From an uncultured archaeon (GTDB lineage: Archaea; Asgardarchaeota; Lokiarchaeia; Sigyniarchaeales; SOKP01), in NCBI GenBank assembly GCA_964508365.1, contig CAZDTP010000036.1:1-39820 (forward strand): a stretch of DNA of 39,820 nucleotides. The letters are read 5' to 3'. Below are positions 8,221 through 39,820 of the stretch, one piece after another; positions within the stretch are counted from its first letter, which is position 1; the number at the start of each line of letters is the position of its first letter. Under the pieces are notes generated by a model, which did no database searches, was not told where the DNA came from, and worked only from the letters and a program-made list of their open reading frames with translations. The position numbers and the translations under genes are program-made.

Positions 8221-10080
8221 ATGCCAAGTTTAAATGATAAAGAATTTTTAGTAGATGAAGATAAAGTATGGTTTACCGGAGGATATTGGCCAGAAGGGGT
8301 ACCACACCAGCTAAAGGATGTAGAAGACGTCAAAATCCTACCATTATGTGACTATTTCATAGATGCTGCTAACACATACGAAACGTGGGATCAAGATTTA
8401 TGCATTTTCGCCTATGGACCATATATAGAACGTGTAAAACTTAAAACTCTCTTTGATTACGCAAAGAGATTTGGTACATTTCTCTATGATACATTAGGAA
8501 TTAGAAAAGGAGATGTTATTGCAATAGATCTCCCCAACTCTATTAATTTCGTTGTTGCCTATATGGGATGTCAATACATAGGTGCCATTGCACAAGGTAT
8601 TAATCCTACGTACAAACCGATGGAACTTTTGCATTCTTTAACAATGACAAAAGCGAAAGTATTAGTTTTAATGGATATGTTATACATAGCTGGTCCGAAT
8701 ACAATTTTGCCGAAAACTAGTGTGAAATATTTAATTCCATCTAATTTTGTTGATTTTCTCACTGCTGATGAGGCTATTATTGAAAAACTAGGTATTCCTA
8801 GTGCAAAAGGTAAGATCCCTGATGAAACTGAGCATTATAAAGTTCACTGGATGCAAAAGATTATTAAAGAAACAGAGCCAAGGGAAATAAAAGTAGAAAT
8901 TAACCCATGGACAGATCCTGCAGTCTATTTAATGACTGGGGGGACCACAGGATTACCGAAGGTTGCAAGACTTTCACATTCAAATTTAAGTGCAAACTTA
9001 AATATGGCAAAGGATTGGACAAAATTGAAAGCAGGGATGATAACTATTGGATCTATACCATTTTTCCATAGCTTTGGTCTAACTTGTGTAATGAATGCCG
9101 CCCTTGGGTTAGGAATGGTCATGTTATTATTTCCAAAGCCCCCTACAGATGATGTTTTATGCGAAACTATAAATAAACTTGATGCTCCTGAAGGAATAAT
9201 GTATACTGGAGTTGAAATGTTATTTAAAAGACTTACTGATTTCATACACGAAATGGGAGTGGAAGAATTCAAGAAAAAATACGATTTTTGGAAAAAATTG
9301 AGATATGCTACTCAAGGAGCGGGACCACTACACTCCTATGTAAAAGATCCATTCGAGGAGATATTTTGTGCGATACGTTCAGGATATGGATTAACAGAAA
9401 CCTCTCCAATGCAAAGTATAGCTCCCTTCTGGGGCCCAACAAAAGCAGGAAAGTTGGGATTACCGATACCAGGCGCAGACTGGGCAATATTTCCCTCCGA
9501 TAACTTTGAAGCAGGACCTATATGTGACGGAACTAAAGAACTTGGAGGATTTGGAGTTGAAAACACAGGAGAAATATGTTGTGCCGGTCCACATATTATG
9601 TTAGGCTATTTAGGAGAACAAAAAGAACAAGAAGATAACTTAAAATACTGGGGCGGAAAACGTTGGCTTCTCACTGGGGATATTGGGTTTATGGATGAAC
9701 ATGGTTGGGTGGAAATACGAGATCGTAAAAAATCTCTAATTAAGGTTTCTGGACATTCTGTATTCCCAAAGGAAGTTGAAGAACTCATGGGAAATCATCC
9801 TGCGATTGATGAAGTTGCCGTTGCAGGACTTCCTGATGAAGAAACTGGTGAAAAAGTTAAAGCGTGGTTAACTCTTAAGCAGGGATATAAAGTAGGGAAA
9901 AATATTGAAATCGAGGATATCAAAACATGGTGCTTAGAAAACATGGCTAAATGGAAGTCTCCAAGATTAATCGAAGCTGTTAGAAGTCTACCCGTAAGTA
10001 TGACTGGAAAAGTGCAACGTAGGGAACTGCAAGAAAAAGATCTAGAAAAATTAGAAAAGGGAAAGGAAATAAAAGGTTAA
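8221..10080 (+). CDS. Long-chain fatty acid--CoA ligase (FadD-like AMP-forming acyl-CoA synthetase)
   Basis: P-loop YLMTGGTTGLPK, GYGLTET, LLTGDIG, IRDRKK, C-terminal SMTGKVQR. Confidence 0.92.
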   Translation: MPSLNDKEFLVDEDKVWFTGGYWPEGVPHQLKDVEDVKILPLCDYFIDAANTYETWDQDLCIFAYGPYIERVKLKTLFDYAKRFGTFLYDTLGIRKGDVIAIDLPNSINFVVAYMGCQYIGAIAQGINPTYKPMELLHSLTMTKAKVLVLMDMLYIAGPNTILPKTSVKYLIPSNFVDFLTADEAIIEKLGIPSAKGKIPDETEHYKVHWMQKIIKETEPREIKVEINPWTDPAVYLMTGGTTGLPKVARLSHSNLSANLNMAKDWTKLKAGMITIGSIPFFHSFGLTCVMNAALGLGMVMLLFPKPPTDDVLCETINKLDAPEGIMYTGVEMLFKRLTDFIHEMGVEEFKKKYDFWKKLRYATQGAGPLHSYVKDPFEEIFCAIRSGYGLTETSPMQSIAPFWGPTKAGKLGLPIPGADWAIFPSDNFEAGPICDGTKELGGFGVENTGEICCAGPHIMLGYLGEQKEQEDNLKYWGGKRWLLTGDIGFMDEHGWVEIRDRKKSLIKVSGHSVFPKEVEELMGNHPAIDEVAVAGLPDEETGEKVKAWLTLKQGYKVGKNIEIEDIKTWCLENMAKWKSPRLIEAVRSLPVSMTGKVQRRELQEKDLEKLEKGKEIKG

Positions 10081-10099
10081 TTTTTTTTAATTTTTTTTT
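10081..10099 (+). terminator. Oligo(T) archaeal terminator
   Basis: T8-AA-T9 directly after the TAA at 10080, between convergent genes. Confidence 0.6.
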
Positions 10100-11729
10100 A
10101 CTCGTTTAATCGTTTATGCGTTTTTTTCATAATTTTATAAATGTTTGTGAACTCATAGAAGAGCTTTTCGTAAACTGCTCTGTTATCGGGATTTGGTCTA
10201 AATACATTGGAAAATTGGATTAAATCTGGTATTTGATCCCAAGTTAGATATCCAAGTCCAACTGCTGCGATGAAAGCAGCCCCACGAGCATTTGCCTGAA
10301 TAGGATCTTTAACTTGCTTGATAGTTCTATTTAGGACATCGGCAAAAATTTGACACCATACATTACTAGATCCCCCTCCCCCAATGATGTTAAGTTCGGG
10401 CATTACTATATCTTTTTTTGTCATTCCAGGATTAGCTTTCATTTTCCATTTCTGGATGAATTTTTCAACGTACATATGAAGCCACCTTACATTGTAGGCA
10501 ACGCCTTCAAATATCGCTCTTATTAGGTGTTCACGCGACATCTCAAGAGATAAATTGTAAAAACCTCCACGAACCATATGATCATCAACGGGTGATCTTT
10601 CTCCGATAAGCCACGGAGTAAAAATCAAATTATTGGACCCCGCAGGAACTTTCTCAACAATTCTATCTAAAATTTTATATACATCAGGGACCTGTTCTTC
10701 TCTCAACAATTCATCTTTATGATACAAAATTTTATCTCTTAAAAATTGTAAAGCTCCTCCAGCGATTTCTTGTTCGTTTGCTACGAAATATTTTCCCTTA
10801 ATTGCAGCAGGAAAACTTCCCATATTATGAAATATATCTGTTTTCTTGTAAGGTACGTGGCATATCAGCCAATCAGATGTTCCAATGTAAATATGTCCTT
10901 CGTAATCCTTAACTGCTCCAGAACCTATAGTTGCTGCATGCAAGTCGGGAGCACCCATAATCAATCTGACTCCCTTGTTTAGACCAAGTTTGTTTGCTAC
11001 TTCGTCTTTCACGGGCCCTAGAACATCTGTGGACCACCTTAAATCAGTCGGAAATTTATCCGGATCAACTTTAAACATTTTCATTAACTTGTTATAGTAT
11101 CTCATGTTGTTAATATCGCGGATATCAACTAAGGTATGCATTTGAATGGAAGCATACGAGGCTGCGAATTTACCTGTGAATTTCAAATTAATAAAGTCTT
11201 GAGGTTCCAAAAACATGTAAGTGTTATCATATACATCTGGTCTCTTATCCTTTATCCATAAGATATGAGCAATGGGATCTTTACCAGATAAGCTTGGACC
11301 TCCTCCCGTAACCTTCACGAATTTTAGCATTTTGCGAACAGAGTATCCACTAACCTGTATTAAACTCTTATGGAATTTCTTCATGTATGGTGCTCCTCGG
11401 GTATCCATCCATATCAGTGAATTCATCAAATGATTTCCGTCTTTGTCAAGGGCAACTGTACCACTCCATTGACTTGAATTGCATACACCTACAATATCAT
11501 CAGCTGAAACTTTTCCACTATTAATGACTTTTTTAGCTGTTGAAACAATGGCATTCCACCAGTCGTCCGGATCTTGTTCAACACCCCCACCTTTTTCCAC
11601 AAGTAATGGAACTTCTTGAAAGGCCCAATCAACTACCTCTCCGTTAGTACTTACGATCGCTGATTTTGGACCTTGAGTTCCATGATCGATTGCTAAAATA
11701 TATTTAGGAGAATTTTCTTTATCTAACAT
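10098..11729 (-). CDS. FGGY-family carbohydrate kinase
   Basis: AIDHGTQGPK, SSQWSG, WMDTRG, GAPD, YIGTS, TPWLIGER, IIGGGGSS. Confidence 0.9.
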   Translation of the reverse strand: MLDKENSPKYILAIDHGTQGPKSAIVSTNGEVVDWAFQEVPLLVEKGGGVEQDPDDWWNAIVSTAKKVINSGKVSADDIVGVCNSSQWSGTVALDKDGNHLMNSLIWMDTRGAPYMKKFHKSLIQVSGYSVRKMLKFVKVTGGGPSLSGKDPIAHILWIKDKRPDVYDNTYMFLEPQDFINLKFTGKFAASYASIQMHTLVDIRDINNMRYYNKLMKMFKVDPDKFPTDLRWSTDVLGPVKDEVANKLGLNKGVRLIMGAPDLHAATIGSGAVKDYEGHIYIGTSDWLICHVPYKKTDIFHNMGSFPAAIKGKYFVANEQEIAGGALQFLRDKILYHKDELLREEQVPDVYKILDRIVEKVPAGSNNLIFTPWLIGERSPVDDHMVRGGFYNLSLEMSREHLIRAIFEGVAYNVRWLHMYVEKFIQKWKMKANPGMTKKDIVMPELNIIGGGGSSNVWCQIFADVLNRTIKQVKDPIQANARGAAFIAAVGLGYLTWDQIPDLIQFSNVFRPNPDNRAVYEKLFYEFTNIYKIMKKTHKRLNE

Positions 11730-11852
11730 ATTAAATATAAATGTTCTTAACGTAAATAAAGATTTTTTTATGTAAGGCTTTCCTATTTATATTAAGTCTT
11801 TTTAATTGACGATACCATTTAATAACTGAAAGAAACATTTTGTTGATTCTAA

Positions 11853-13250
11853 ATGGAATATGAGGAAAAATTAGCGAAAATTAAAAATATTGTTGATTTG
11901 CCCATAAGCAAATTTAAACCAGATGAATTAAAAGCTATAATAGAGAGGTATGAAAAAAATCATACGAAATCAAAAATGGCTTTTGAGAGAGCAAGAAAAA
12001 TAATCCCTGGAGGTGTAGAACATAATCTCGCCTTCAACTGGCCATTCCCTCTAGCAAGTAAGCGGGTTTTTGACTGTTACATGGAAACTGTTGATGATGT
12101 CGTTCTAACGGACTATTTAATGGATGGAGGTCCTATTATCCTCGGGCATAATCATCCGGTTTTGACAGAAAAGATTATCGAAGTTATTCGGGAAATTGGA
12201 CCATGCCATGGAATAACTAACGAATATGAATATCTTGCTGCTGAAGAACTTCAGAAGCATTTTCCATCTTGTGAAATAATAAGATGGCTCCAAACAGGAA
12301 CAGAAGCCGATATGCTAGCTATAAGGATTGCCAGAGTTGCTACAAATCGTAAATGGGTTATTAAAATAGGTGGCAGTTATCACGGATGGTCAGATCAATT
12401 GGTTTACGATATGCATGTTCCTGGAACAAAATTATTAGAATCACATGGAATACCAAAAAACATATTTAAATTTATCGATTCTTGTCCTCCAAACGATATT
12501 GAAACATTACGGCAAATGTTTGCAGAAAAGCGAAAAGTTGCTGCCGTTATAATTGAACCAATGGGGGGAGAATCAGGAGCTATTCCTGTTAAACCTGGAT
12601 TTAATAAAGAAGTGGAAGAACTTTGCCATGAAAATAATACCCTTTTGATTTCCGATGAAGTTGTATGTGCTTTTAGATTGCATATGGGTGGTGGTCAAGC
12701 TTATTATGGTTATGAACCGGATTTATCTGTGTTTGGTAAAATAGTTGGACATGGATATCCCTCCGCTGCAGCTATTGGAGGTAAAGAAGAATTTATGAAA
12801 TATTGCGCTGCAGGAGTAGGTGGAGGTAAAAGAGCTTATAGCGGAGGAACTTTAGCAGCAAATCCTTTAACTTGTGCAGCTGCGTATCATGCTATTAAAT
12901 TAGTCGAAGAAACTGGGGCGACGGAAAAAGCTGGAAAAGCAGGAACTCGCTTAGCGAATGGATTAAATAAAATGTTCGAAAAATACGAGTTACCATGGTT
13001 TTCGTACAATTTAGGTGGCACAGTTCATTTTCATACATCGTGCCTATTTGGATTGAGTTTTGATATTCCTGACCAAGTTGGACAGCTTCCATTGAGGAAA
13101 AAATTTATGGAGCATATAGGTGCCGCTTTGGTAGATCAAGAAATAATTTCCGTTGCAGGAAGTAGATTTTACATGTGTATTCTCCATTCCGACGAGATAA
13201 TCGATGAGACCGTTGAAAAAATAGATAAAATATGTCAAAAAATAGCATAA
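11853..13250 (+). CDS. Class III PLP-dependent enzyme, glutamate-1-semialdehyde aminomutase-like but divergent
   Basis: GPIILGHNHP, QTGTEA, GSYHG, IIEP, SDEV, PLP Lys in VFGKIVG, GGTLAANP. Confidence 0.85.
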   Translation: MEYEEKLAKIKNIVDLPISKFKPDELKAIIERYEKNHTKSKMAFERARKIIPGGVEHNLAFNWPFPLASKRVFDCYMETVDDVVLTDYLMDGGPIILGHNHPVLTEKIIEVIREIGPCHGITNEYEYLAAEELQKHFPSCEIIRWLQTGTEADMLAIRIARVATNRKWVIKIGGSYHGWSDQLVYDMHVPGTKLLESHGIPKNIFKFIDSCPPNDIETLRQMFAEKRKVAAVIIEPMGGESGAIPVKPGFNKEVEELCHENNTLLISDEVVCAFRLHMGGGQAYYGYEPDLSVFGKIVGHGYPSAAAIGGKEEFMKYCAAGVGGGKRAYSGGTLAANPLTCAAAYHAIKLVEETGATEKAGKAGTRLANGLNKMFEKYELPWFSYNLGGTVHFHTSCLFGLSFDIPDQVGQLPLRKKFMEHIGAALVDQEIISVAGSRFYMCILHSDEIIDETVEKIDKICQKIA

Positions 13251-13259
13251 TTTTTTTTT
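13251..13259 (+). terminator. Oligo(T) archaeal terminator
   Basis: T9 immediately after TAA 13250. Confidence 0.55.
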
Positions 13260-13372
13260 ACATTAAATAAAATTCTTATTTTTTAATTAAGTAAAACCTC
13301 TGTAGGCTAAAACAAATAATAAACTTTATTATCTCTAAACTCGAATTATACATATTCTAAAACAAAATTAAA

Positions 13373-14407
13373 GTGAAAGTTATGGGTAATCAGAATGAGA
13401 TAACAGATTCGTCAAATTTGTTTAATGATGATGGCTCCCTTGTTCAACGAGGATGGGCAAGAAAACCAATACTAAAATACAATAAAGATAAAATTGGAAA
13501 AGGTTGGTCCCGCATTAAAGAATGGGATCACTTTTCTGTATTAAATAAAAACTTCGGATTTCAGTTAACGATAGGCGACATTGGATACCTAACCCAAATG
13601 AGTTACGTTTGGTTAGATTTTGAAAAAAAAGAACGCGATGGAAAGGGGTTATTCAAATTTTTTACCAAATCAAAGGTTCTTCCATTGAATTCGTTAGAGG
13701 ACAGCGAAATTGAATTTCCTACTAAAAAATTTAAAGCAACAATCTCAAGACAGAAAAACACAAGAATACTTACTATTGAAGATCCCTCGTTTCAAGATAA
13801 AGGGCTAAAAGGAAATATTATTTTACAAGATGATCCTAAAGCTGACAATACCGTAGTTGTGACGGGATATAAAGAGGATCCAAGGTTGTTCTATTATAAC
13901 CATAAGATTAATTATATGCCTGCGGAAGGTTCTCTTACTATTGGAGATAAATCGTATCTCTTTGAACCTGAAACTTCTTATGGGCTCATGGACTGGGGTC
14001 GCGGGATATGGCCCTATAAAACTCATTGGTTATGGGGTTCAGGTTGCGGGCTTGTTGACGAAGTCCCTGTTGCGTTTAATATTGGTTATGGCTTTGGAGA
14101 TTTATCTACTCATACTGAAAATATCATCTTTTACGATGGTAAAGCACATAAGATTGATGAGGTAGAGTTTCATCACGAAAATAGAGATCCTGCTAAACCT
14201 TGGAAATTCACAAGCAACGATAATAGGTTTAATATGATTCTAGATCCAATTATTCCACAGAGAGAAAAACTTAATTTTGGATTAATTTATTTAAATTCTT
14301 CATTACTTCATGGGCTATATTCTGGAGAAGTAGTTCTTGACAATGGTGAAAAAATAAAGATTGATAATATGCTAGGACACGCTGAAGACATTTATTGGCG
14401 CTGGTAA
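13373..14407 (+). CDS. DUF2804-family protein
   Basis: GWARKP, RIKEWD, FYYNHKIN, MDWGRGIWPYKTHWLW, FNIGYGFG, TENIIF; start may be ATG 13382 rather than GTG 13373. Confidence 0.75.
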   Translation: MKVMGNQNEITDSSNLFNDDGSLVQRGWARKPILKYNKDKIGKGWSRIKEWDHFSVLNKNFGFQLTIGDIGYLTQMSYVWLDFEKKERDGKGLFKFFTKSKVLPLNSLEDSEIEFPTKKFKATISRQKNTRILTIEDPSFQDKGLKGNIILQDDPKADNTVVVTGYKEDPRLFYYNHKINYMPAEGSLTIGDKSYLFEPETSYGLMDWGRGIWPYKTHWLWGSGCGLVDEVPVAFNIGYGFGDLSTHTENIIFYDGKAHKIDEVEFHHENRDPAKPWKFTSNDNRFNMILDPIIPQREKLNFGLIYLNSSLLHGLYSGEVVLDNGEKIKIDNMLGHAEDIYWRW

Positions 14408-14437
14408 AAGAAGAAGCAATATTAATTTATTTTTCTT

Positions 14438-15346
14438 TTAATGATTTACAATAACTTCATAGGAATGCTGTTCAAACAATTTTGTGATAATATTTAGATT
14501 TTCATCAGTCAAATCTCCCTTATCCTGATATAAATCTCCCATTCCAACTTTCTCATATTTTGTTTTTGTTAATTTATTATAAGGCATTAAATGTATTTGA
14601 CCATCGTAACTAATTTCGTGCAAGAAGCTTATTATATGTTGAATTGTACTTCTATCTGTATTAACTCCCGGTATTAAAGGGATGCGTGGTATAATTCTTT
14701 CACTCCCTACTTTAGAGAGAATTTTAGAGAAGTTTGAGAGAATCTTTTCGTTGGGTACATGAGTAAATTTCTTATGTTTTTCACTATCAATCAATTTAAT
14801 ATCAAATAGAAATAAATCCACAAATTTAACTAATTCACCAATTAAATCTTCATTAAAGTACCCACACGTTTCTATTGCAGTATGAATCCCTTGTTTTTTT
14901 AATGCTTTAAGCAGTTCTAAAAGAAAATTGATTTGTATGGTAGGTTCTCCGCCAGAAATAGTAGCTCCTCCACCAGAATTATCGTAAAAAGGTTTATCCT
15001 TTAATACAAATTCTACAAGTTCTTCCACGGAGCTCTCTCTACCAATAATTTCCATTACTTGATTCGGGCACATTTCAGCGCATTTTCCACACATAGTACA
15101 GAGGGCTTTATCTCTCTTAATTTCGTCATTTAATAACTGAAGAGCTTTATTAGGGCAAGCTTTAACGCAAATTTCACATAATTGACATTTTTCTTTAAAA
15201 TAAGACATTTCAGGGGATAATTTTTGCGACTCGGGATTTTGGCACCAATCACACTTAAGAGGGCATCCTTTCAAAAAAATTATAGTTCTAATGCCAGGGC
15301 CATCATATATTGCATAATTTTGAATATCAAATATAATTCCGTTCAT
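14438..15346 (-). CDS. Glycyl-radical enzyme activating enzyme (radical SAM with two-ferredoxin insert)
   Basis: DGPGIRT, GCPLKCDWCQNPES (CX3CX2C), CQLCEICVKACP and CTMCGKCAEMCP, SGGEP, HTAIETCG; 8 nt downstream of the GRE. Confidence 0.95.
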   Translation of the reverse strand: MNGIIFDIQNYAIYDGPGIRTIIFLKGCPLKCDWCQNPESQKLSPEMSYFKEKCQLCEICVKACPNKALQLLNDEIKRDKALCTMCGKCAEMCPNQVMEIIGRESSVEELVEFVLKDKPFYDNSGGGATISGGEPTIQINFLLELLKALKKQGIHTAIETCGYFNEDLIGELVKFVDLFLFDIKLIDSEKHKKFTHVPNEKILSNFSKILSKVGSERIIPRIPLIPGVNTDRSTIQHIISFLHEISYDGQIHLMPYNKLTKTKYEKVGMGDLYQDKGDLTDENLNIITKLFEQHSYEVIVNH

Positions 15347-26849: not shown

Positions 26850-28307
26850 TTAAATTCCTAATTCTTTTAACTTTGCTTTATTAGTTGCTACTTTATCTGG
26901 AGTAAGATCGTAGAATTTCCAGAAGATTATTAGTAAGAGTAGTGCAAATATCGCAGGAACAATTGCAGAATGAATTCTAATTCCAAAAAGCGCGAGTTCA
27001 ATGTTAGGACTTAATGCCGTCAATTGTGCTAATGTTGATGCTCCCTCAACAAACCCAGTTAGTATATGCGTTATTGAAATTGTAATAGCGATAAATGTTC
27101 CTCCAAAGCGAGCAAAGAAAGCTTGATAACCGTAATAGATAGATTGTTGTCGTTTATTCGTTTTTACAGCAATATCGTCAAGAACATCCGTTAAAAGCGG
27201 TGCATCAATAAACCAATTACCACCCACACCGACACCAAAAAATAGCAAGAATATCATCCACATCACCAGACCCTGTGCAAATATTAATGGTATAAATGTT
27301 ATAAATAATATCGCACCAGCTATTATACCCATTTTCTTATTATCATTAACCCTTTTAGAAAACCATGTCCATAGGGGAACAGATATTAGAGATCCTAATA
27401 ACATAGCACCAAGTAACAAAGAAATAAAGAAAGCTTCTGCATCTAACAAAAATGTTACGATATAAAAAGCTGATGTTTGAATCATTACCGCTGATACTTG
27501 ATATCCAAAAAAGAAAAGTGCTTTAACAACAAAAAGTTTATTCGAGAGCGCAGTCTTAGCAGATTTAAAAAAAGATTCAACTTCTGTGTCTAAACCTTTT
27601 TCTTTCCGTGTTTTATAATAATCTAATACATGTTGACTTTCTTTTATTCCTGGAATTGCCATTAGGAAAAAAATAAAGCCAACTCCTATGGTTACAAGAG
27701 CAGCAGTAATATAGGTAGGTGCTACTCCAGTAGTAATAAACATCGGTGGTATTAATGCTGCTAATACAAGGCCAATTATCCCAAGTATAGTACCAAAGCC
27801 TTGAGCTGAACGACGCTCATTTAATCCTCTGAATTTATCAGGGAATAAAGATAACACATTTATATCCCAAATAGCAATTAGAAAGTCATATAAGCAAAGA
27901 GTTCCAAGATACCATCCGAAGATTAACCATTGGTTAGCTGCTACGATTGCAGGGCTACCATACCATCCAGATGGAACTAGATAGATAAAAAGATACGCTA
28001 CTAACCATGTTGCTGCTCCAATTACCATCCAAGGGAACCTTCGAACACCCCTCTTTTTTTCCCAGGGCATGTGTATGCGTTCCATTATATATCCCACGAT
28101 AGGATCGTTAAAGGCATTCCAGACACTATATAAAATGAAAGCTGTCATTGCTAGAATTGTAGGTAAACCAATTACAACTTCGTAAAAAAAGAAAACTGTA
28201 AAACCGAATGCTGCAGAAATCCACTGCCCAAATAGTTCCCGGGTACCGTAACTAACCCTAACTCCTAATGAATTGTCATAAACTTCTTTTTCAACTGATT
28301 CTGTCAT
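26850..28307 (-). CDS. GPH (MelB-like) glycoside:cation symporter, MFS_2
   Basis: SYG, WNAFNDPIVG, RRFPW, DVLDD, QSIYYG. Start placed at ATG 28307 by alignment to its paralog; the track uses TTG 28343. Confidence 0.9.
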   Translation of the reverse strand: MTESVEKEVYDNSLGVRVSYGTRELFGQWISAAFGFTVFFFYEVVIGLPTILAMTAFILYSVWNAFNDPIVGYIMERIHMPWEKKRGVRRFPWMVIGAATWLVAYLFIYLVPSGWYGSPAIVAANQWLIFGWYLGTLCLYDFLIAIWDINVLSLFPDKFRGLNERRSAQGFGTILGIIGLVLAALIPPMFITTGVAPTYITAALVTIGVGFIFFLMAIPGIKESQHVLDYYKTRKEKGLDTEVESFFKSAKTALSNKLFVVKALFFFGYQVSAVMIQTSAFYIVTFLLDAEAFFISLLLGAMLLGSLISVPLWTWFSKRVNDNKKMGIIAGAILFITFIPLIFAQGLVMWMIFLLFFGVGVGGNWFIDAPLLTDVLDDIAVKTNKRQQSIYYGYQAFFARFGGTFIAITISITHILTGFVEGASTLAQLTALSPNIELALFGIRIHSAIVPAIFALLLLIIFWKFYDLTPDKVATNKAKLKELGI

Positions 28308-28540
28308 AATAAAAAACTCATATTTTTTAATATCCCTATTCAAATATTCCTATTTATTAAAAATAGAAATATAGATACTTTTTTTTTCTAGAAATATGTT
28401 TTATAAGTACATTTTTAAAGTTTTTTAAACATTTTCTAATTTTTATTTTGATTTATTGATCGTAAAGAAATATAGAAGGACTCAAATTAACCCTAAAAAA
28501 TTTATTCAAAATCTAGTAAAAAGGTATATATAGGAATTAG

Positions 28541-29980
28541 TTACAAGCCAAGTTCTTTTAGTTTTTCTTTATTTGCCGCAACCTTTTCCGGTATTAAATC
28601 ATACCATTTCCAAAATATGAAAATCGTTACAAGTACTAAAATTGCGGGAATAATAGCAGCATGAGCTCGAATACCCAATAATGCTAACTCTGGGGTTGGA
28701 CTTTGAGCAAATAATTGTGCATAACTCGTTACACCGGCTGGAAAACCTGTTAATATGTGTATTATTGCGAAAAGAAAAGCTTGAAATGAACCACTTATTC
28801 TAATAAAAAAAGCTTGATATCCATAATAGATTGCAGCTTCTCGTTTTCCTGATCTTATTGCTATATCATCAAGGACATCCCCCATTGTAGGAGGATCCAT
28901 AAACCATTGACCTCCAAGACCTATTCCAAATAAAAAGAGTGCGATCATAAAAAATAGAAAATCACTAACAAAAAACATCGGTAAAAAGGTTAGGAACATT
29001 ACGAATCCAGCTACTAAACTCATTTTTTTATTGTTATTTACCTTTTGAGAGATGAATGTCCAAAGTGGCATAGAAATAAGAGCACCTATAAGCATAAAGG
29101 CCATGAGTATACCTAAAGTGCCAGCATCTCCTTGGATTACATAAGTTATCATGTAAGGTCCAGATGCTGAGAGTAAGGCAACTGCAGCTTGATAACCAAA
29201 AAAGTAGATTACTTTTATCATGAAACATCGATCTGTGATGGCCTTCTTGGTCGTTTTAAAGAAAGGTTCGCGATCTATTTTTTTAGCGACCTCTCTATAT
29301 TTTTGATATCTAGCTCTCATCTTTGGGTTTTCTCTGGTACCCGGTATCATTAAGAAAAATAGAATTAATCCTATCCCAACACCAACCCAAGCCATAATAC
29401 GATAAGTCTCAGGATGATCTGTTGTTATAAACATTGGAGGAATAATAGAACCTACCGCAATTCCTATCATTCCCATTAATGTTCCAATACCTGTTGCTAG
29501 TCTGCGCTCAGTACTACCTTTAAATTTATCAGGATACTGTGCTGTGGCATTTACATTCCATAAAGTAAATAGCGTATCATAAAGAATAAGTGTAATTAAA
29601 AACCAAGTAAAGATTAACCATTGGTCATTTACTGGGTGCCAATTCAATGGAACTAAGAATATTGCAACATATGAAAAAAGCCAGGGAATCGCGCCTAAAA
29701 AAATCCATGGAAAACGTTTACCCCATCTTTTTTCCCAAGGCATATGAATCCTCTCCATTAAATAACCGATTAGAGGATCATTTACAGCGTTCCATATAGA
29801 GTAAATTATTAAAGCAAACGCCGCAATTCCAACATTTAAACCTATTTCTACTTCATAGAAGAAGAAAACATAAAGACTGAAAGCACCAGTTATCCATTGT
29901 GAAAATGTTTGATAAGCACCATAACTTATCATTATTGGAATTGAATTCTCGCGCACTTCTTTTTCTTTTTTTTCAGTCAT
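28541..29980 (-). CDS. GPH (MelB-like) glycoside:cation symporter, MFS_2 (tandem paralog)
   Basis: SYG, WNAVNDPLIG, KRFPW, DVLDD, AAIYYG. Confidence 0.9.
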   Translation of the reverse strand: MTEKKEKEVRENSIPIMISYGAYQTFSQWITGAFSLYVFFFYEVEIGLNVGIAAFALIIYSIWNAVNDPLIGYLMERIHMPWEKRWGKRFPWIFLGAIPWLFSYVAIFLVPLNWHPVNDQWLIFTWFLITLILYDTLFTLWNVNATAQYPDKFKGSTERRLATGIGTLMGMIGIAVGSIIPPMFITTDHPETYRIMAWVGVGIGLILFFLMIPGTRENPKMRARYQKYREVAKKIDREPFFKTTKKAITDRCFMIKVIYFFGYQAAVALLSASGPYMITYVIQGDAGTLGILMAFMLIGALISMPLWTFISQKVNNNKKMSLVAGFVMFLTFLPMFFVSDFLFFMIALFLFGIGLGGQWFMDPPTMGDVLDDIAIRSGKREAAIYYGYQAFFIRISGSFQAFLFAIIHILTGFPAGVTSYAQLFAQSPTPELALLGIRAHAAIIPAILVLVTIFIFWKWYDLIPEKVAANKEKLKELGL

Positions 29981-30076
29981 ATAACTTCACTTAATTCGTT
30001 TTTATTAGAAAAACGAAAATTTTTTGTATTTTTTATTATACATTTAGATAATCTATTATATAATACTAAAAAAAAA

Positions 30077-30760
30077 ATGAAGATTGTAATTTTTGAACCT
30101 CATCCAGACGATTTATTATTTGGACCTGGACCTATTCTTTTAGAATGGATAAATGAAGGAAGCCACGATATTCATATTATTACAGTAACAGATGGAAGGG
30201 CTTGTTACAGGTCTGGAAAAGACAGTTATTCTGAAGATGTTGCTCATATGACTGAAGATCATGTTGCTGAGATGAGAATTAGCGAAGCCAAAAAATCAAT
30301 TGAATTCTTGGGACTTCCTTCGGAAAATCACCATCTTCTTTATTTTCACGATGCTGATGGTCAAAAGTATGTAAAGGAAGGAATCAAGAAAGTAAAACCT
30401 CTACTTAAAGATGTAGACAGAATTGTTTTACCGAGTACTCATAATATTCATGTAGATCATCAAGCTACTCACGATATTGCAATAGGTGCTGCTAAAGAAT
30501 TAAACTTGACAAGTATTGAATATTTCGTTTACTTTATTGCTTCCTATGGTAAATTTCAAGAAGACTCTAAAGTAAAGCAATTTCAATACACTATAGATGA
30601 AGATAAAGCAAATATTTTAAAAGATTGGCTAGAAATATATCAATCTCAGGCAAAAATAAAATGGACGTGGAAAATGTATACAACATATCTAAAGAAAATA
30701 CGGACATGGATATATGGGAGATATACTTTTGACGACATTGGAAAATATGATAATTTCTAA
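30077..30760 (+). CDS. PIG-L/LmbE-family Zn deacetylase
   Basis: FEPHPDD, ITVTDG, MRISEA, FHDADG, HVDH. Confidence 0.88.
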   Translation: MKIVIFEPHPDDLLFGPGPILLEWINEGSHDIHIITVTDGRACYRSGKDSYSEDVAHMTEDHVAEMRISEAKKSIEFLGLPSENHHLLYFHDADGQKYVKEGIKKVKPLLKDVDRIVLPSTHNIHVDHQATHDIAIGAAKELNLTSIEYFVYFIASYGKFQEDSKVKQFQYTIDEDKANILKDWLEIYQSQAKIKWTWKMYTTYLKKIRTWIYGRYTFDDIGKYDNF

Positions 30761-33387: not shown

Positions 33388-34095
33388 TCATAAATTCTTC
33401 GCTACACCAAAATACACGAAATAAAGTGAAACTAACATAGGGAGCGAGAGAAGTGACCAGATTAATCTAAATGTTGGATCGTTTAATGTATTAGAGATCG
33501 ATGTGCCATAATATAAGAAAAAATAGGTACTTATACCTATTAAAAAATACTTTAATTTCTTCTTTAACTCCTTATATTCGAATTTAAGATATAATTTTAA
33601 TGATAAATATATCGTTGGAAAGATTGCGAAAATGCTACAAATAGTAAAACTATATAATAAATAAATCCAGCTCCAATTAGGCTTCCAGTTAGTACTTTCG
33701 TTAATTGTCACTCCATTTGGAATCAACCATAAACCGACTAACATAATACCAAAAACAACAACTAGAATTAATTGAAGTTTAGGAGTGAAAACATCCTCTG
33801 ATTTAAGTAAGATTAAGACAAAAACCAACAAGAAGATTAAAGGAAAACATAATAAATAATACGTTGTAACATGCAAAATATAAACTATTTCCTCTATAAA
33901 AATAAAGGCATAGACAAGATTTAAGATTGCGGCGAATGCTACGCATATATAGAAACTGCTAAGAATAAGGTTTAAACCTTTCGTTTCCCTTTTCAAAATT
34001 TTATACGCGATAAATAAATAAAATAGCCCTGCTAAACCCTGTACTAAAAAGATTTGGATAAATCGAGCAATATCCACAGTTTGCACCAGAATCAT
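33388..34095 (-). CDS. Orphan 7TM membrane protein (tandem paralog)
   Basis: Seven hydrophobic segments; GVTINESTNWKPNWS, KFEYKELKKKLKYF, SNTLNDPTFRL; GGAG elements upstream of the ATG. Confidence 0.75.
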   Translation of the reverse strand: MILVQTVDIARFIQIFLVQGLAGLFYLFIAYKILKRETKGLNLILSSFYICVAFAAILNLVYAFIFIEEIVYILHVTTYYLLCFPLIFLLVFVLILLKSEDVFTPKLQLILVVVFGIMLVGLWLIPNGVTINESTNWKPNWSWIYLLYSFTICSIFAIFPTIYLSLKLYLKFEYKELKKKLKYFLIGISTYFFLYYGTSISNTLNDPTFRLIWSLLSLPMLVSLYFVYFGVAKNL

Positions 34096-34345
34096 TAATA
34101 TAATATCTCCAACTCCTTTACATTATAGTGTATAGATCCTTTGTCTATTTAGTGTCATATATTTTATCTATATTTAATAATTTATTTTTTGGAAGGTTGT
34201 ATAACTGTTCGAACGAAAATAAAATTGTTAAACCTATAGTAAATCTCAATTTATAAGGATATGAACTTATAACTTAAAATGGAAAAATGAATGTTAAGAA
34301 CTATCTTATATGATAGGAATAACGATTTGTTGCATTACTTTTAGT

Positions 34346-34939
34346 TTACGGGTATTTTCCTACAAAATCTGTACTCTTCGTTTTCACTCGCTCGAACATT
34401 TCAGGATTTATAAATTCTAGCTTTAATTTCATATAATTGAGAAGTTTCTTGAAGATATCGGCAATATCTTTCTGTGAGTTTTCAATTTTAAAGCAATAGT
34501 GAAATTTTAACTCTTTAGTTTTTTGCATTAAAGCAAAATTATTTATTTTTCTTGCTGTTGGAGGATCTTTCTGCTCAATTAAATAAGGATCGATTCCAAC
34601 TAATACTGTTATCCCATTAAACATGAAATTTTCACAGAATATCTTATAATTATTTAATGTTAGCTTAAAAATCGTTTGATCATTATAGAGATTTACGGCA
34701 ACAATAATTGCATCAAATTTTTTAAGATTTTTAACATCATCGGTAAGATCTTCGAAATGTTTAAACCGAAAAATTTTCATTTTTAGTGGTATCTTCTCGT
34801 AGATAAATTGAAATTCGCTCATCGAATCTTTAGAACTTGTTAGTTTAGTTTTTTCTTTTAAGTGATCTAAGATAATATCGATTCTTGAATCATCATTCCC
34901 TATTAAACCCAAATTTAAAGAAAAATGGAAGTCCTTCAT
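34346..34939 (-). CDS. Degenerate Rab/Ras-like small GTPase-fold protein (probable pseudo-GTPase)
   Basis: Secondary-structure pattern matches Rab: FSLNLGLIG (beta1), KIPLKMKIF (beta3), FDAIIVAVN (beta4), ITVLVGID (beta5), FHYCFKI (beta6), DIADIFKKL (alpha5); G1-G5 motifs absent. Confidence 0.5.
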   Translation of the reverse strand: MKDFHFSLNLGLIGNDDSRIDIILDHLKEKTKLTSSKDSMSEFQFIYEKIPLKMKIFRFKHFEDLTDDVKNLKKFDAIIVAVNLYNDQTIFKLTLNNYKIFCENFMFNGITVLVGIDPYLIEQKDPPTARKINNFALMQKTKELKFHYCFKIENSQKDIADIFKKLLNYMKLKLEFINPEMFERVKTKSTDFVGKYP

Positions 34940-35034
34940 TACTTTCCTATCAAATAAAAATAATTAAAGCTCTTAATTTAATATTATAATAAAATATCGA
35001 ACATATAAATTATTGATCGAACTTTCATTTTAGA

Positions 35035-35961
35035 ATGTTATTTATATACGGTTTATTAGTGTTAATGGTATTTCTCTGGAGCTTCTCATTCGTTCTTGTG
35101 GATATAGCTGTCGAATTTATACCTCCAACATCTCTTGCCTTGACCAGATTCTTATTAGCATCACTATCATTTTTAATCGTTGATCTTTATTTGTTTGTAA
35201 GACGAAAACAAAGAGTTGCGGAAACTTCCAAAACAGCTGAGAAGTATTTTTATTCGAAAATGGAATGGATCTATTTAGTTATTGCAAGCTTTAGCGGTAC
35301 ATCTTTCTTCTTCGCCATCCAATATGCAGCAATCGAGTTGATAGGACCCTCTTTGCCGGCATTATTCGTGTGCCTATTAGCACCCGTATTAATTACTGTC
35401 TTAGCTTTATTTTTTTTTAATGAAAGATTAACTAAGGTGAAAATAATAGGTTATATTATTGCAACAATTGGAGGTTTTTTGTTAGTCACAGGAGGAAATT
35501 TACAAACACTTGCTCCAGAAACACCTAACTTTTTAGGATATTTATTTGCTCTTATAACGCCTTTGTTGTGGGCGATATATACAATTGCTACAAAAAAAAT
35601 ATCCAAAGAGAAGTCTAATTTAATTTCACTCAAATATATAGCTTATTTTGGGACGCTGGAATTGTTTTTTTTCGTTTTATTAAATAATGAATTACTAATT
35701 TTTATCCAAAATCTGGCTAATATTGTTGTTTTAATGTCTGGAATATATTTAGGAATTGGTTGCTACATAATTGGTTACTTTATCTGGCAGAAATCCCAAA
35801 ATGAACTAAAATCTTCAAAGGGGGCTTCGTTTCTCTATATTGAGCCGTTTCTAACTCTCATCTTTTCAATTATCTTAAACCGATCTGAGACAATATTGAT
35901 ATGGAACATCATCGGAGGAATCATTGTTCTTGTAGCTGTTATAGTAATAAATTACAAGTAA
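35035..35961 (+). CDS. EamA/DMT-family transporter
   Basis: LWSFSF, RFLLA, APVLITVLALFFFNER, WAIY, FLYIEP; two 5-TM repeats. Confidence 0.9.
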   Translation: MLFIYGLLVLMVFLWSFSFVLVDIAVEFIPPTSLALTRFLLASLSFLIVDLYLFVRRKQRVAETSKTAEKYFYSKMEWIYLVIASFSGTSFFFAIQYAAIELIGPSLPALFVCLLAPVLITVLALFFFNERLTKVKIIGYIIATIGGFLLVTGGNLQTLAPETPNFLGYLFALITPLLWAIYTIATKKISKEKSNLISLKYIAYFGTLELFFFVLLNNELLIFIQNLANIVVLMSGIYLGIGCYIIGYFIWQKSQNELKSSKGASFLYIEPFLTLIFSIILNRSETILIWNIIGGIIVLVAVIVINYK

Positions 35962-35979
35962 AATAGATTATGAACTGAG

Positions 35980-36675
35980 ATGACCAAAAGAATACTTTTT
36001 ATTGGTGATAGCATCACTGAGGGAAAAATAGGAATCGGATATGTTGATATAATTCAACAGAAATTCCCTGATTCGAAGTGTATAAATAGTGGACGCGGTG
36101 GTGATACCCTCTATGGAATCTTTACGAGACTTTTAAAAATTTTGAAAACGTATACTGAAAAATATGACATTATAGTAATTGAAGCCGGTCACAACGATCT
36201 TTTCTTACCTTATCTCAAAAAAAAGTGGAATTTCACAAGTATTAGAAAAGTAACTCCATTAAACAAGATAAAAGACTTTTATGATAATGGATTAAGAGCG
36301 ATAAGTTTACATAGCAAAGCAATGAAGATAATAACTACTTTAAGTTGCTTAGGAGAAGACGTAAATTCTCCGCTAAACCAAAAAAGAAGATTAGTAAATG
36401 ATCAGATTAAGGAAGTCGGCTCTAAACATGGCGCATATATAGCTGATGTGAGTCCATTCTTTGATAAGATACTAAAAAAATGCATTTCGAGTTATAATCT
36501 AAGGGATCATCCTTTAAACTTAGTTTTCGATTATTTCAGATCAAAAAGAATGAACTGGGCAGAAAGTATAAGCAGGAAAAGAGGGTTGGTGTTGACTATA
36601 GATGGTGGACACCTCAATAGCAAAGGTGCGATAATATATGCTAGAGAAATATCCCGAATTTTAGATATGCTCTAA
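35980..36675 (+). CDS. SGNH/GDSL hydrolase (esterase/lipase)
   Basis: Blocks FIGDSITEG, SGRGGDT, EAGHND, DGGHLN. Confidence 0.92.
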   Translation: MTKRILFIGDSITEGKIGIGYVDIIQQKFPDSKCINSGRGGDTLYGIFTRLLKILKTYTEKYDIIVIEAGHNDLFLPYLKKKWNFTSIRKVTPLNKIKDFYDNGLRAISLHSKAMKIITTLSCLGEDVNSPLNQKRRLVNDQIKEVGSKHGAYIADVSPFFDKILKKCISSYNLRDHPLNLVFDYFRSKRMNWAESISRKRGLVLTIDGGHLNSKGAIIYAREISRILDML

Positions 36676-36735
36676 CCGTGAAAAAGTTGAAAAATTTGGT
36701 TAAAAGAAAATAGTTTGAAGATATAAATAGAGAGG

Positions 36736-38178
36736 TTATAAATTCCTTGAAGTAATAGATTCTAATTCCCTAGAAATTGTATCATCAATAGGTCTTAAAG
36801 AACCTTTCTTAGCGAGTTTAGTCGCCTGCTCCTTTGCTCTTTTTCTTGCCGACTTAGAGCCATTTTCTTTCCAAGCGTCTCGAGACAAGCGATCTATTAC
36901 AGGACTCACTAGAAAAAGCTCTTTTCTAAAAAGCTTTAAAGTCGTTGGATGCGAGAGTAATTCCTCTTTTTCATTGTAGTCCTTTAAAATCTCAGAAGCG
37001 AAAGGAGTACCGTGATCTTCTACCCCTCTTAGAAGTCGTTTTACCATTCCGATAATTTCGTTGTCGATTATTAATTTTTCTATGCTTTGTGTCGATTCAA
37101 AATCTAACATACCCGCTCCGGAAATCATGTTTACTCCTGCAAGTCCTGCTAAAAGAGCCCCCATACCCCCTTCGAATCCTGCTTGTGCGTCTGGGACTTT
37201 GGAATCGCTTAAACCCATATACGCGTGAGTAGGTAGATTCAAAAAAGATCCCATTTCGACATCCCCTAAGTTAATCATCATTGTCTCAATTGCTCCCATT
37301 GGAGTTGTGCCTTGCTTCATATCTAATATTGCGGGTGATCCTCCCCATATCAAAGGAGCTCCCGTTTTTGCAAGCTGTCCAATTACAACCCCCGCTAAGC
37401 ATTCCGCAGAGTGTTGTGTTATTGAACCTATTAAGCTTATTGGAGCGCTAGCCCCTGCTAACGGCATAGACACAAACTCAGATGGTATCATACTCTTGGC
37501 GGCATCGATAAGTGATTGAGAAGTTAGGTCTGACCATTTTAGCGGAGGACTAGGACATGCATCAAAGATCGCTAAAGGTTTCCTTGCTAATTCATCTTCT
37601 GATAATCGACAACTTAACAATAACTCTTTCATAATTGAAAAACTTTCCTTTCGAAATGTCCCAGTTACGATTGGTTTATAGCAATTAGATAATGCGATAT
37701 ATAGCCTATGCCAATCTTGTGCCTGCGTGGGGACATCTTGATAAACTATTGCAGTACTTTGAGCCTCGATATACATTAAATGTTCTACTACCTTTGAGAA
37801 ACGTACGAAATCTTTTTCAAACGCATTTCTAGTATCACCTGTATTTTCATCTAGAAATAATATCGCTGCTGAACCAGGATCATAGTGAACATTATCGTTC
37901 GCTAAAGTAATATGCTCTTTTCCCTCTCTATCAAATAGCTTAATCTCATTTGGAACAGTTTTGAGACATCTATCTACTAAATCAGAAGGAATAAAGTATC
38001 GAGGACCCTCGTGATTGACTCCCTCCTTGTTAAATAATTTTTTAGCGTTCTCATTTCCTAAGAATATTCCTAGATTTTCTAAAATATCTTTAGCTTCGTT
38101 GAATATCTTTATTTTATGATCTTCATCTAAAACATTAATTCTTGGTCTTAATATTCCCATCCTAACATACACACTCAC
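36736..38178 (-). CDS. MttB-superfamily (trimethylamine/quaternary-amine):corrinoid methyltransferase, non-pyrrolysine
   Basis: SPPLKW, PLAGASAPIS, YMGLSDSKVPDAQAGFE, GVNMISGAGMLD; continuous ORF with no in-frame TAG; start may be ATG 38160. Confidence 0.9.
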   Translation of the reverse strand: MSVYVRMGILRPRINVLDEDHKIKIFNEAKDILENLGIFLGNENAKKLFNKEGVNHEGPRYFIPSDLVDRCLKTVPNEIKLFDREGKEHITLANDNVHYDPGSAAILFLDENTGDTRNAFEKDFVRFSKVVEHLMYIEAQSTAIVYQDVPTQAQDWHRLYIALSNCYKPIVTGTFRKESFSIMKELLLSCRLSEDELARKPLAIFDACPSPPLKWSDLTSQSLIDAAKSMIPSEFVSMPLAGASAPISLIGSITQHSAECLAGVVIGQLAKTGAPLIWGGSPAILDMKQGTTPMGAIETMMINLGDVEMGSFLNLPTHAYMGLSDSKVPDAQAGFEGGMGALLAGLAGVNMISGAGMLDFESTQSIEKLIIDNEIIGMVKRLLRGVEDHGTPFASEILKDYNEKEELLSHPTTLKLFRKELFLVSPVIDRLSRDAWKENGSKSARKRAKEQATKLAKKGSLRPIDDTISRELESITSRNL

Positions 38179-38184
38179 TTTTGA

Positions 38185-39072
38185 TTAATTTTCTAGTGAA
38201 TCAATAAGTTTTCTTATTTCTTTTATAGTAGCTGGAGACGTTCCACAGCAACCTCCTACGATTTTAGCGCCCAGTTGTATCATTTCTCCTATATCATTTA
38301 CGAAATCCTTTATAGGTTGATCGTAAACCGCTATATTATCACTGTTAATTCTTGGTTGACCTGCGTTAGGTTTTAGAGATATTGGTCTATCAGTAAGATG
38401 TTTCAAATCTTTCATTAAATCAACCATTTGATCGCTTCCTAATGTACAATTTGCGCCAATTACGTCTGCGTCTTGATCTTCCTGAATTTGGACGCACATC
38501 TCTAGAGAATCTCCCATTATCGTATAAAAGCCTTTTTTCGTCTTTTTATAAGTCATAGAACTAATAATAGGTTTTTTTGAAATGATTCTCACTGCTTCCA
38601 ATGCTGCTTTCATCTCTTCAATATCTGACATTGTCTCTATATGCCATAAATCTACTCCAGCTTCTAATAAAGTAGCTTGTTTCTCAAAGCTAGAAATCCA
38701 TTGATCTGGTGATGCTTTTCCAACTGGAGGTCGAAATTCACCAGAGGGACCTATATCGGCAACAATTAAATGATTTGGAGGACATGCTTTTTTTATATTT
38801 TCTAAGCCGCCCAGATTTATTTCTTTGATTCGATCTTCTAGTTTATAATTCTTTAGGTTTATGAAGCTTGACCCAAATGTGTTTGTTTGACACATATCTG
38901 CCCCAGCAATGTAATAAGATTTGTGAATATCAATTATGATATTGGGTTGCTCGATATTGAGCGAATCAGGAAGCTTTCCCGGCTTAATACCGCGTTTAAA
39001 AACTTCTGATCCCATTCCTCCATCAAACAGTATGATTTTAGAACTATCATTTAGCCAATCATGAAATAACAT
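38185..39072 (-). CDS. Stand-alone homocysteine S-methyltransferase domain (split MetH / BHMT-like)
   Basis: LFDGGMGS, QTNTFG, DIGPSG, IETM, Zn ligands in GANC and GGCCGT, KPNAGQP. Confidence 0.92.
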   Translation of the reverse strand: MLFHDWLNDSSKIILFDGGMGSEVFKRGIKPGKLPDSLNIEQPNIIIDIHKSYYIAGADMCQTNTFGSSFINLKNYKLEDRIKEINLGGLENIKKACPPNHLIVADIGPSGEFRPPVGKASPDQWISSFEKQATLLEAGVDLWHIETMSDIEEMKAALEAVRIISKKPIISSMTYKKTKKGFYTIMGDSLEMCVQIQEDQDADVIGANCTLGSDQMVDLMKDLKHLTDRPISLKPNAGQPRINSDNIAVYDQPIKDFVNDIGEMIQLGAKIVGGCCGTSPATIKEIRKLIDSLEN

Positions 39073-39102
39073 AACATACCTCCCTATAAATCGTTTATAA
39101 TA

Positions 39103-39750
39103 TTATTTTTTTAAGAGATTTTTAACTAATTTAACAGCTTCTACAGCACTACTAGCAAATCCATCTGCATTACATTCTTCTGTCCACTCTCGGGTTACTG
39201 GAGCCCCTCCAATAATTACTTTAAAATTATCTCGAATACCTCTTTCCTCTAAGATATCTATAATCTTTTTTTGACCGAACATTGTTGTAGTAAGCAAAGC
39301 GGAAACCCCTATTATGTTCGCATTTTTCTCAACTGCAGTTTCAATGATTTTTTCTGCTGGAATATCTGCCCCTAAATCGTAAACCTCAAAACCATTAGCA
39401 CTTAGCATAGTACCTACGATAGTTTTTCCAATAGAATGAATATCTCCCTCAATCGTAGCAATTACCACAACTCCTAGTGACGCAGAAGTTCCACTCTCTT
39501 TCAAGCTTGGTAATAGAATATCCATCGATTCTTGCATAATATTTCCACCAAGCATTAATTCTGGTAAGAAAAATTCTCCTTCTTCCCACAGGTCGCCAAT
39601 TCTTCGGACACCGTCTCCATAACCTTTTTCAATGACCTCTAGCAAGTTCAATTTTTCAGTAATCGCCCTATTTGCTAGATCAATTGCTTTCTCCTTGTCT
39701 AAATTCACAATTGCGTCAGAAATTTCACCATAAAATTGTTCTTGAGCCAT
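39103..39750 (-). CDS. Corrinoid (B12-binding) methyl-carrier protein, MtbC/MttC-like
   Basis: Cap domain IGDLWEEGEFFLPEL, DxHxxG in EGDIHSIG, GVSALLTTT, IIGGAP; AGGAG upstream of the ATG. Confidence 0.94.
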   Translation of the reverse strand: MAQEQFYGEISDAIVNLDKEKAIDLANRAITEKLNLLEVIEKGYGDGVRRIGDLWEEGEFFLPELMLGGNIMQESMDILLPSLKESGTSASLGVVVIATIEGDIHSIGKTIVGTMLSANGFEVYDLGADIPAEKIIETAVEKNANIIGVSALLTTTMFGQKKIIDILEERGIRDNFKVIIGGAPVTREWTEECNADGFASSAVEAVKLVKNLLKK

Positions 39751-39820
39751 TATAATATCTCCTAAAAACTTTTTACATATAATTTTTACATTATTTTAGT
39801 TAATTAATTAAAATTTCGGA

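Follow-up and report, generated by a model that had tools for sequence, protein, structure and literature searches.

A putative split, B12-dependent methionine synthase with an MttB-family component in an uncultured Asgard archaeon

Described systems and the triad at the contig end

A gene cluster encoding a homologue of the methyltransferase MttB, a homocysteine (Hcy) methyltransferase, a corrinoid protein and an activation protein was found in Candidatus Electryoneota and 'diverse bacteria' (Williams et al., 2022, Environ Microbiol, PMC9324843) and was suggested, as a hypothesis only, to constitute a novel corrinoid-dependent methionine synthase, the methyl donor of which is unknown. Here we describe a related triad of genes in a stretch of 39,820 nucleotides (called the window in the following; GenBank assembly GCA_964508365.1, contig CAZDTP010000036.1) from an uncultured archaeon of the Asgard order Sigyniarchaeales (Lokiarchaeia). 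The window is an entire contig (C36) of a 4.07-Mb assembly that consists of 149 contigs and was scored as 100% complete. The triad is no new kind of system but a three-gene Asgard variant, devoid of the activation domain, of the cassette that had been proposed for bacteria before. With a probability of roughly 0.6 its products would form a split cobalamin-dependent methionine synthase, in which a TIM barrel of the MttB family replaces the folate-binding module of MetH, and for a case made in silico the methionine synthase reading is strong. As in the cassette of Williams and colleagues, genes for an MttB homologue, an Hcy methyltransferase and a corrinoid protein are clustered in the triad, and its MttB homologue falls into a clade with those of four-gene bacterial loci, in a tree to which the Williams sequences themselves do not belong. 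In contrast, the copy in the window is archaeal, comprises three genes with no activation protein in operon or genome. No methionine synthase besides it could be recognised in this genome, while metagenome-assembled genomes (MAGs) of Electryoneota also encode a full MetH. No description of the cassette in Asgard archaea was found in literature searches, which did not include Table S4 of Williams et al.

Another related system is the split methionine synthase MtgBCDE of Ruegeria pomeroyi, Phaeobacter inhibens and S. meliloti (PMC12478193), corresponding to the split MetH described by Price et al., 2018 (PMC5764234). In Ruegeria the Hcy module is MtgE, and MtgB belongs to the MttB family (PMC12478193). 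Genetic experiments revealed that neither methionine synthesis nor the demethylation of betaine proceeds without the stand-alone corrinoid protein MtgC and the pterin module MtgD (Mausz et al., 2025, PMC12478193). Since the pterin-binding MtgD is essential, the methyl donor for methionine in Ruegeria is folate (PMC12478193). The initial annotation of the window had referred to a betaine-to-methionine arrangement in marine alphaproteobacteria; this precedent is real, albeit with the pterin module MtgD as an indispensable part. As is proposed for the triad, MtgBCDE is a split B12-dependent methionine synthase, in which a stand-alone corrinoid protein serves both an MttB-family enzyme and a stand-alone Hcy module. 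The two differ in that Ruegeria MtgB functions in the catabolism of betaine and most of the genes lie apart, whereas the archaeal genes form one tight operon in a genome with no MtgD-type gene and the betaine-binding residues are absent.

Classical MetH of E. coli and T. maritima, a single polypeptide composed of Hcy, Fol, Cob and Act modules, shares with the triad the Hcy module with a three-cysteine zinc site as well as B12 cap and Rossmann domain, the latter with a DxHxxG motif, and with sister lineages of this archaeon also the S-adenosylmethionine (SAM)-binding activation domain. In the triad, however, the modules reside on separate polypeptides and an MttB-family barrel takes the place of the Fol (Pterin_bind) module. 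The MtgB/MtgC/MtgA system of Desulfitobacterium hafniense and the related quaternary-amine systems with MtpB, MtcB, MtyB and MthB likewise have a non-pyrrolysine first methyltransferase (MT1) of the MttB superfamily beside its cognate corrinoid protein, but their second methyltransferase (MT2) passes the methyl group to tetrahydrofolate (THF) or coenzyme M, whereas the triad offers a homocysteine module and its MttB homologue a different pocket.

Operon, module proteins and their conservation

The triad is encoded on the minus strand at the very end of the contig. The first gene of the operon encodes the corrinoid (B12-binding) protein, the presumed methyl shuttle (39103..39750; 215 aa, PF02607 and PF02310), the second a stand-alone MetH-type homocysteine S-methyltransferase, the putative zinc-dependent methyl acceptor module (38185..39072; 295 aa, PF02574, 207 bits), and the third a non-pyrrolysine MttB-superfamily methyltransferase, the presumed methyl-donor module (36736..38178; 480 aa, PF06253, 246 bits). 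Common orientation and gaps of 30 nt between the first two and 6 nt between the last two genes agree exactly with the initial annotation. The MttB homologue could start with a GTG at 38178 or an ATG at 38160, the ATG yielding 474 aa and a second gap of 24 nt, and its alignment with most relatives begins only at residue 7. Upstream of the operon an A/T-rich 5' leader and promoter remnant with an AGGAG 8 nt before the ATG is preserved (39751..39820, minus strand); the contig stops after these 70 nt, and no overlap of its end with another contig end of the assembly was found.

Among solved structures the closest relative of the Hcy protein is the N-terminal module of T. maritima MetH (1Q7M, 166.6 bits), while the stand-alone Homocysteine S-methyltransferase entry 5DML yields only 48.3 bits. 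By sequence, the protein is MetH-like rather than like the corrinoid-independent homocysteine methyltransferase of the latter entry. The DGxxG, ET, NC and GGCCG motifs of the Hcy-binding module of MetH are present, and the three zinc-ligating cysteines that the initial annotation had pointed out could be located as C209, C275 and C276, which are invariant in 28 orthologues. In the same alignment E146, T147 and N208 are likewise invariant and D17 nearly so. Additional stand-alone Hcy-module paralogues (51-52% and 34-36% identity) occur in five loci of the Asgard families f7 and f29 (L088, L089, L102, L097, L098), with no corrinoid protein or MttB adjoining; the neighbours of the paralogue in L089 are a gene for an MFS transporter and a gene for a protein with a metallo-beta-lactamase fold.

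The corrinoid protein resembles MtbC and MtgC and scores 213.2 bits against TIGR02370, just below the cut-off of 215.3 bits. It contains the motifs D103-x-H105-x-x-G108, S150-x-L152 and G181-G182, and DxHxxG, SxL and GG are invariant in 27 orthologues. B12 cap and Rossmann domain with these three motifs, the features by which cognate corrinoid proteins are recognised, are thus all present. Complex prediction for the Hcy module and the corrinoid protein, each given as an alignment, resulted in a score of 0.56 as compared to 0.00 for the best of three controls, which lends weak support to a direct interaction. Of 80 solved complexes 58 reach the mark used for such predictions, as do 2 of 110 mismatched pairs, and scores of 0.60 or less that still pass it were obtained for only 7 of the 80 solved complexes but for both of the passing mismatches. 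The runs share at least 56% of the contacts, with a partner pLDDT of at least 79. Since MetH structures are already solved, the prediction may reflect mere likeness to them.

Is the triad more than a chance neighbourhood? A survey of synteny, which the initial annotation had suggested as a check, was carried out as a scan of one genome per species and returned 53 loci, of which 52 have titles that mark them as Asgard (Promethearchaeota/-ia, Hermod-, Hod- and Odinarchaeota). In all 50 Asgard loci with enough sequence the corrinoid protein gene is followed by the Hcy gene and then by the MttB gene, on a single strand and with short gaps; the MttB homologues are 71-96% identical, the Hcy proteins 57-97% and the corrinoid proteins 62-92%. 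This arrangement is more than chance. When all flanking open reading frames (ORFs) of the 52 Asgard loci were clustered, no further conserved neighbour emerged except for a family of about 454 aa, which half of the loci carry upstream in opposite orientation; at its position locus L034 contains a histidyl-tRNA synthetase gene (449 aa). An MT2 or pterin-binding gene immediately upstream, which according to the initial annotation might have explained the module, was found neither in a close relative with a 239-kb contig nor in a 66%-identical relative with different flanks. One locus (L036, DATKTW010000084.1) contains the Asgard operon with 91-96% identical proteins and was deposited as 'Candidatus Nanopelagicaceae bacterium'; it is probably a mis-binned or mislabelled MAG.

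In a survey of 300 genomes of the phylum, homologues of the Hcy module were detected in 49 of 68 genomes of family f1, 22 of 28 of f7, 17 of 21 of f24 and 11 of 11 of f29, and some matches in families f2 and f16 fall within long MetH-like ORFs. Strong core-MetE-like matches were found in the Hcy-less families f5, f8, f17, f21, f23 and f18 and the reverse is also true, a complementarity that holds at the level of families only, related genomes being non-independent samples. In families f9 (0 of 76 genomes) and f14 (0 of 19) neither an Hcy-module homologue nor a match to PF01717 was found.

The connection to MetH becomes apparent in sister lineages. Family f24 retains the triad at an Hcy identity of 41-58%. 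In families f7 and f29 the Hcy gene is followed by a gene of 217-244 aa for a PF02965 activation domain (Act) with an RxSPGY motif, and the MttB gene is located right after it or a few kb off; in the f24 locus L101 the activation gene is placed after MttB. In one f7 locus (L093:4196-6823) an octopine-dehydrogenase-family gene and a B12-binding/MutE-like gene lie between activation gene and MttB. Among MttB relatives of 42-50% identity, one metagenome contig encodes corrinoid protein, Hcy, Act and MttB in this order, and the same order occurs in loci titled Krumholzibacteriota, Coprothermobacterota and in other MAGs of uncultured bacteria, as found in a search with the MttB of locus L106, in which several loci are cut by contig ends; Act is missing from two Coprothermobacterota loci. 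In a FastTree phylogeny of 101 MttB relatives all cassette-linked proteins, that of the window included, form one clade (SH-like support 96) that excludes the conventional type, in which corrinoid protein, MttB and URO-D go together. Because sister lineages and bacteria add a stand-alone PF02965 activation domain, the cassette mirrors, as judged by its domains, MetH (Hcy, Cob, Act) with an MttB-family barrel replacing the folate barrel.

The MttB homologue and the methyl-transfer genes of the genome

The match of the MttB homologue to PF06253 spans residues 12-475 and thus its full length, while its TIGR02369 score of 361 bits is under the cut-off of 525 bits. The frame is open for 480 aa with no in-frame UAG or other stop codon, and the pyrrolysine of M. 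barkeri MttB (7XCL) has Leu323 as its counterpart in the alignment. The protein is equidistant to M. barkeri MttB (186 bits) and D. hafniense MtgB (185 bits). The Rfam family PYLIS_3 matches positions 37113-37210 (minus strand) of the window with 50.9 bits, the gathering score being 38. This region is internal to the MttB-like gene and begins at the pyrrolysine-equivalent codon, where there is no UAG, and PYLIS_3 also matches the relatives L038 and L101. The match seems to stem from homology of the coding sequence to true mttB, not from a cis-regulatory element, and would be a false positive in automatic annotation.

In the 100%-complete genome no match to PF01717 (MetE/core-MetE) and no second PF02574 protein was found, the Hcy gene of the triad being the single match, and as far as sequence homology allows recognition the triad would be the only methionine synthase of the genome. 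An SAH hydrolase is encoded, indicating that homocysteine is produced. A pterin methyltransferase of the MeTr, MtgA or MtgD type was not found in the genome. Its PF00809 matches are two DHPS-type proteins: a pterin-binding gene at the start of contig C15 was considered as the missing MT2 and rejected as DHPS (TIGR01496) beside gyrB, and a match on contig C3 was considered as MeTr and rejected as a DUF4346 DHPS-like protein. The initial annotation had noted that the window contains no MT2, and in fact all URO-D, MtrH and pterin-binding matches of the genome are located off contig C36. In total the genome has 15 URO-D matches, 21 B12-binding matches and four MttB paralogues, the three further paralogues being 27-28% identical to the MttB homologue of the window. 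Furthermore, it encodes a single corrinoid activase of the RACo/RamA type (664 aa with a Fer2 domain; contig C6, about 34000-36800, L030), the gene of which adjoins a gene for a Ras-family small GTPase.

Proposed methyl flow and alternative explanations

How could the three proteins act together? The MttB homologue would methylate the Co(I) of the corrinoid protein from a non-folate donor, most likely a methylated amine. The methyl-Co(III) form of the corrinoid protein would then dock on the Hcy module, where the zinc-activated thiolate of homocysteine could accept the methyl group, yielding methionine and Co(I). Corrinoid oxidised to Co(II) would probably be repaired by the ATP-dependent RamA/RACo-type activase encoded elsewhere, because the SAM-dependent activation protein of the sister cassettes is missing in this lineage. 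Since a further methionine synthase could not be recognised, the likely role of the triad would be housekeeping remethylation of homocysteine for the SAM cycle and for methionine supply. Domain identities, catalytic residues, conservation of the operon and gene inventory follow directly from the sequences, whereas the direction of the methyl flow, the donor and the route of reactivation are inferred. A flow of methyl groups from MttB via the corrinoid protein to homocysteine, bypassing a pterin module, had been proposed in the initial annotation and gains support from synteny, from the activation domain of the sister cassettes and from the gene inventory; amine demethylation, which had been considered there as a further purpose, appears less likely than housekeeping methionine synthesis.

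Several observations speak against a methionine synthase fed by MttB. The activation domain was not found in this genome, neither with the PF02965 profile nor by tblastn with Asgard activation proteins, and the RACo gene is unlinked to the operon. The operon is absent from some complete genomes of sister genera and is therefore not universally essential. Because the contig ends there, the region upstream of this copy is unreadable. With two MTHFR-family genes and four MtrH homologues, the genome probably provides for methyl-pterins, from which this corrinoid protein could also be methylated. Moreover, none of the four residues with which MtgB binds glycine betaine, Y97, R312, H348 and F356 (PMC13080624), is kept in the MttB homologue, which has S103, H318, S353 and E361 instead. 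A different signature, F/Y99, S103, H/Q318, Y320, L323, S353, D359, F360 and E361, is near-constant in the cassette MttBs of Asgard archaea and bacteria, which argues for one substrate common to these proteins that would be bound otherwise than betaine in MtgB. A methylated amine as donor is no more than a guess at the level of the protein family. The flanking genes of the bacterial cassettes gave no consistent hint to the substrate, and an Rfam search upstream of bacterial and archaeal cassettes found no riboswitch. It could be speculated that cassette-type MttBs use a universal endogenous donor, for example a methyl-pterin such as methyl-tetrahydromethanopterin (methyl-H4MPT) or an unrecognised cellular methylamine, and not environmental betaines. 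This idea is doubtful at present; if it were true, several Asgard lineages and many anaerobic bacterial phyla would have in the cassette their ancestral methionine synthase for housekeeping, and its donor would be a new substrate class for the MttB superfamily.

The pterin-related genes could also mean that corrinoid protein and Hcy module form the core of a hub that receives its methyl groups mainly from methyl-H4MPT or methyl-THF via an MtrH homologue, with MttB as an accessory feeder that acts whenever its substrate is at hand. Ruegeria MtgC indeed serves the pterin module and MtgB alike (PMC12478193), and in addition to the two MTHFR-family genes the four MtrH homologues would be available, none of which shares a contig with a B12-binding-domain match. 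Such a hub is nevertheless unlikely, since all 50 loci have MttB and not MtrH as operon partner, MttB is the best conserved of the three proteins, the conserved neighbours include no MtrH or pterin gene, and the bacterial cassettes are self-contained too. Still less probable appears a catabolic operon that demethylates an abundant methylated amine with homocysteine as sink, the methionine being degraded further or regenerating SAM. All characterised enzymes of the MttB superfamily are catabolic or serve energy metabolism (PMC13080624), this genome is rich in methyltransferases, and a Cys/Met-type enzyme dependent on pyridoxal phosphate (PLP) is encoded after another MttB paralogue on contig C13. 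However, the operon is single-copy and strongly conserved in a genome with no other methionine synthase, the MetH activation domain is linked to it in sister lineages, and homocysteine, as is generally known, is no stoichiometric sink that cells keep in quantity. Finally, the general zinc-thiolate chemistry shared by PF02574 proteins would in principle allow the Hcy protein to act on another thiol in place of homocysteine, and thus to be an unusual MT2 in methylotrophy. Its closeness to MetH Hcy modules, the invariance of the motifs that hold homocysteine and the co-occurrence with an activation domain specific for methionine synthases make this highly improbable.

If the triad is indeed a split methionine synthase, four sampled Asgard families and several uncultured bacterial phyla would make methionine by such a B12 enzyme, and the growth of these lineages would be tied to cobalamin and to the methyl compound that serves as donor. 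A biosynthetic role would be added to the MttB superfamily, so far known only from catabolism, and a gap would be filled in metabolic models of Asgard archaea, which would otherwise be scored as methionine auxotrophs. The system is small, three proteins and an activase, and open to direct testing.

Neighbouring genes and further MttB loci

The EamA gene close to the operon, to which the initial annotation had drawn attention, is real (35035-35961, plus strand); its association with the triad is not conserved. Of the 52 clustered Asgard loci only 15 share an ORF family of corresponding length (about 310 aa), which is taken for EamA because of this length and the gene tables of two close relatives, and EamA as cognate transporter or cassette part was therefore dropped. 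In one bacterial locus an EamA gene follows MttB.

On contig C13 (about 9886-14870, L003 and L004) two divergently oriented MttB paralogues and a corrinoid protein are encoded. One of these MttB genes is followed, after a gap of 3 nt, by the gene for the PLP enzyme of Cys/Met metabolism (methionine gamma-lyase/cystathionine gamma-synthase family), an arrangement that constitutes a second link of an MttB-family gene to sulfur amino-acid metabolism in this genome. The fourth MttB paralogue is located on contig C50 (L005) and is followed by genes for a PIG-L-family deacetylase and an MFS_2 transporter, resembling a set in the window at 26850-30760, 6-10 kb from the operon, that consists of two MFS_2 transporters and a PIG-L deacetylase.

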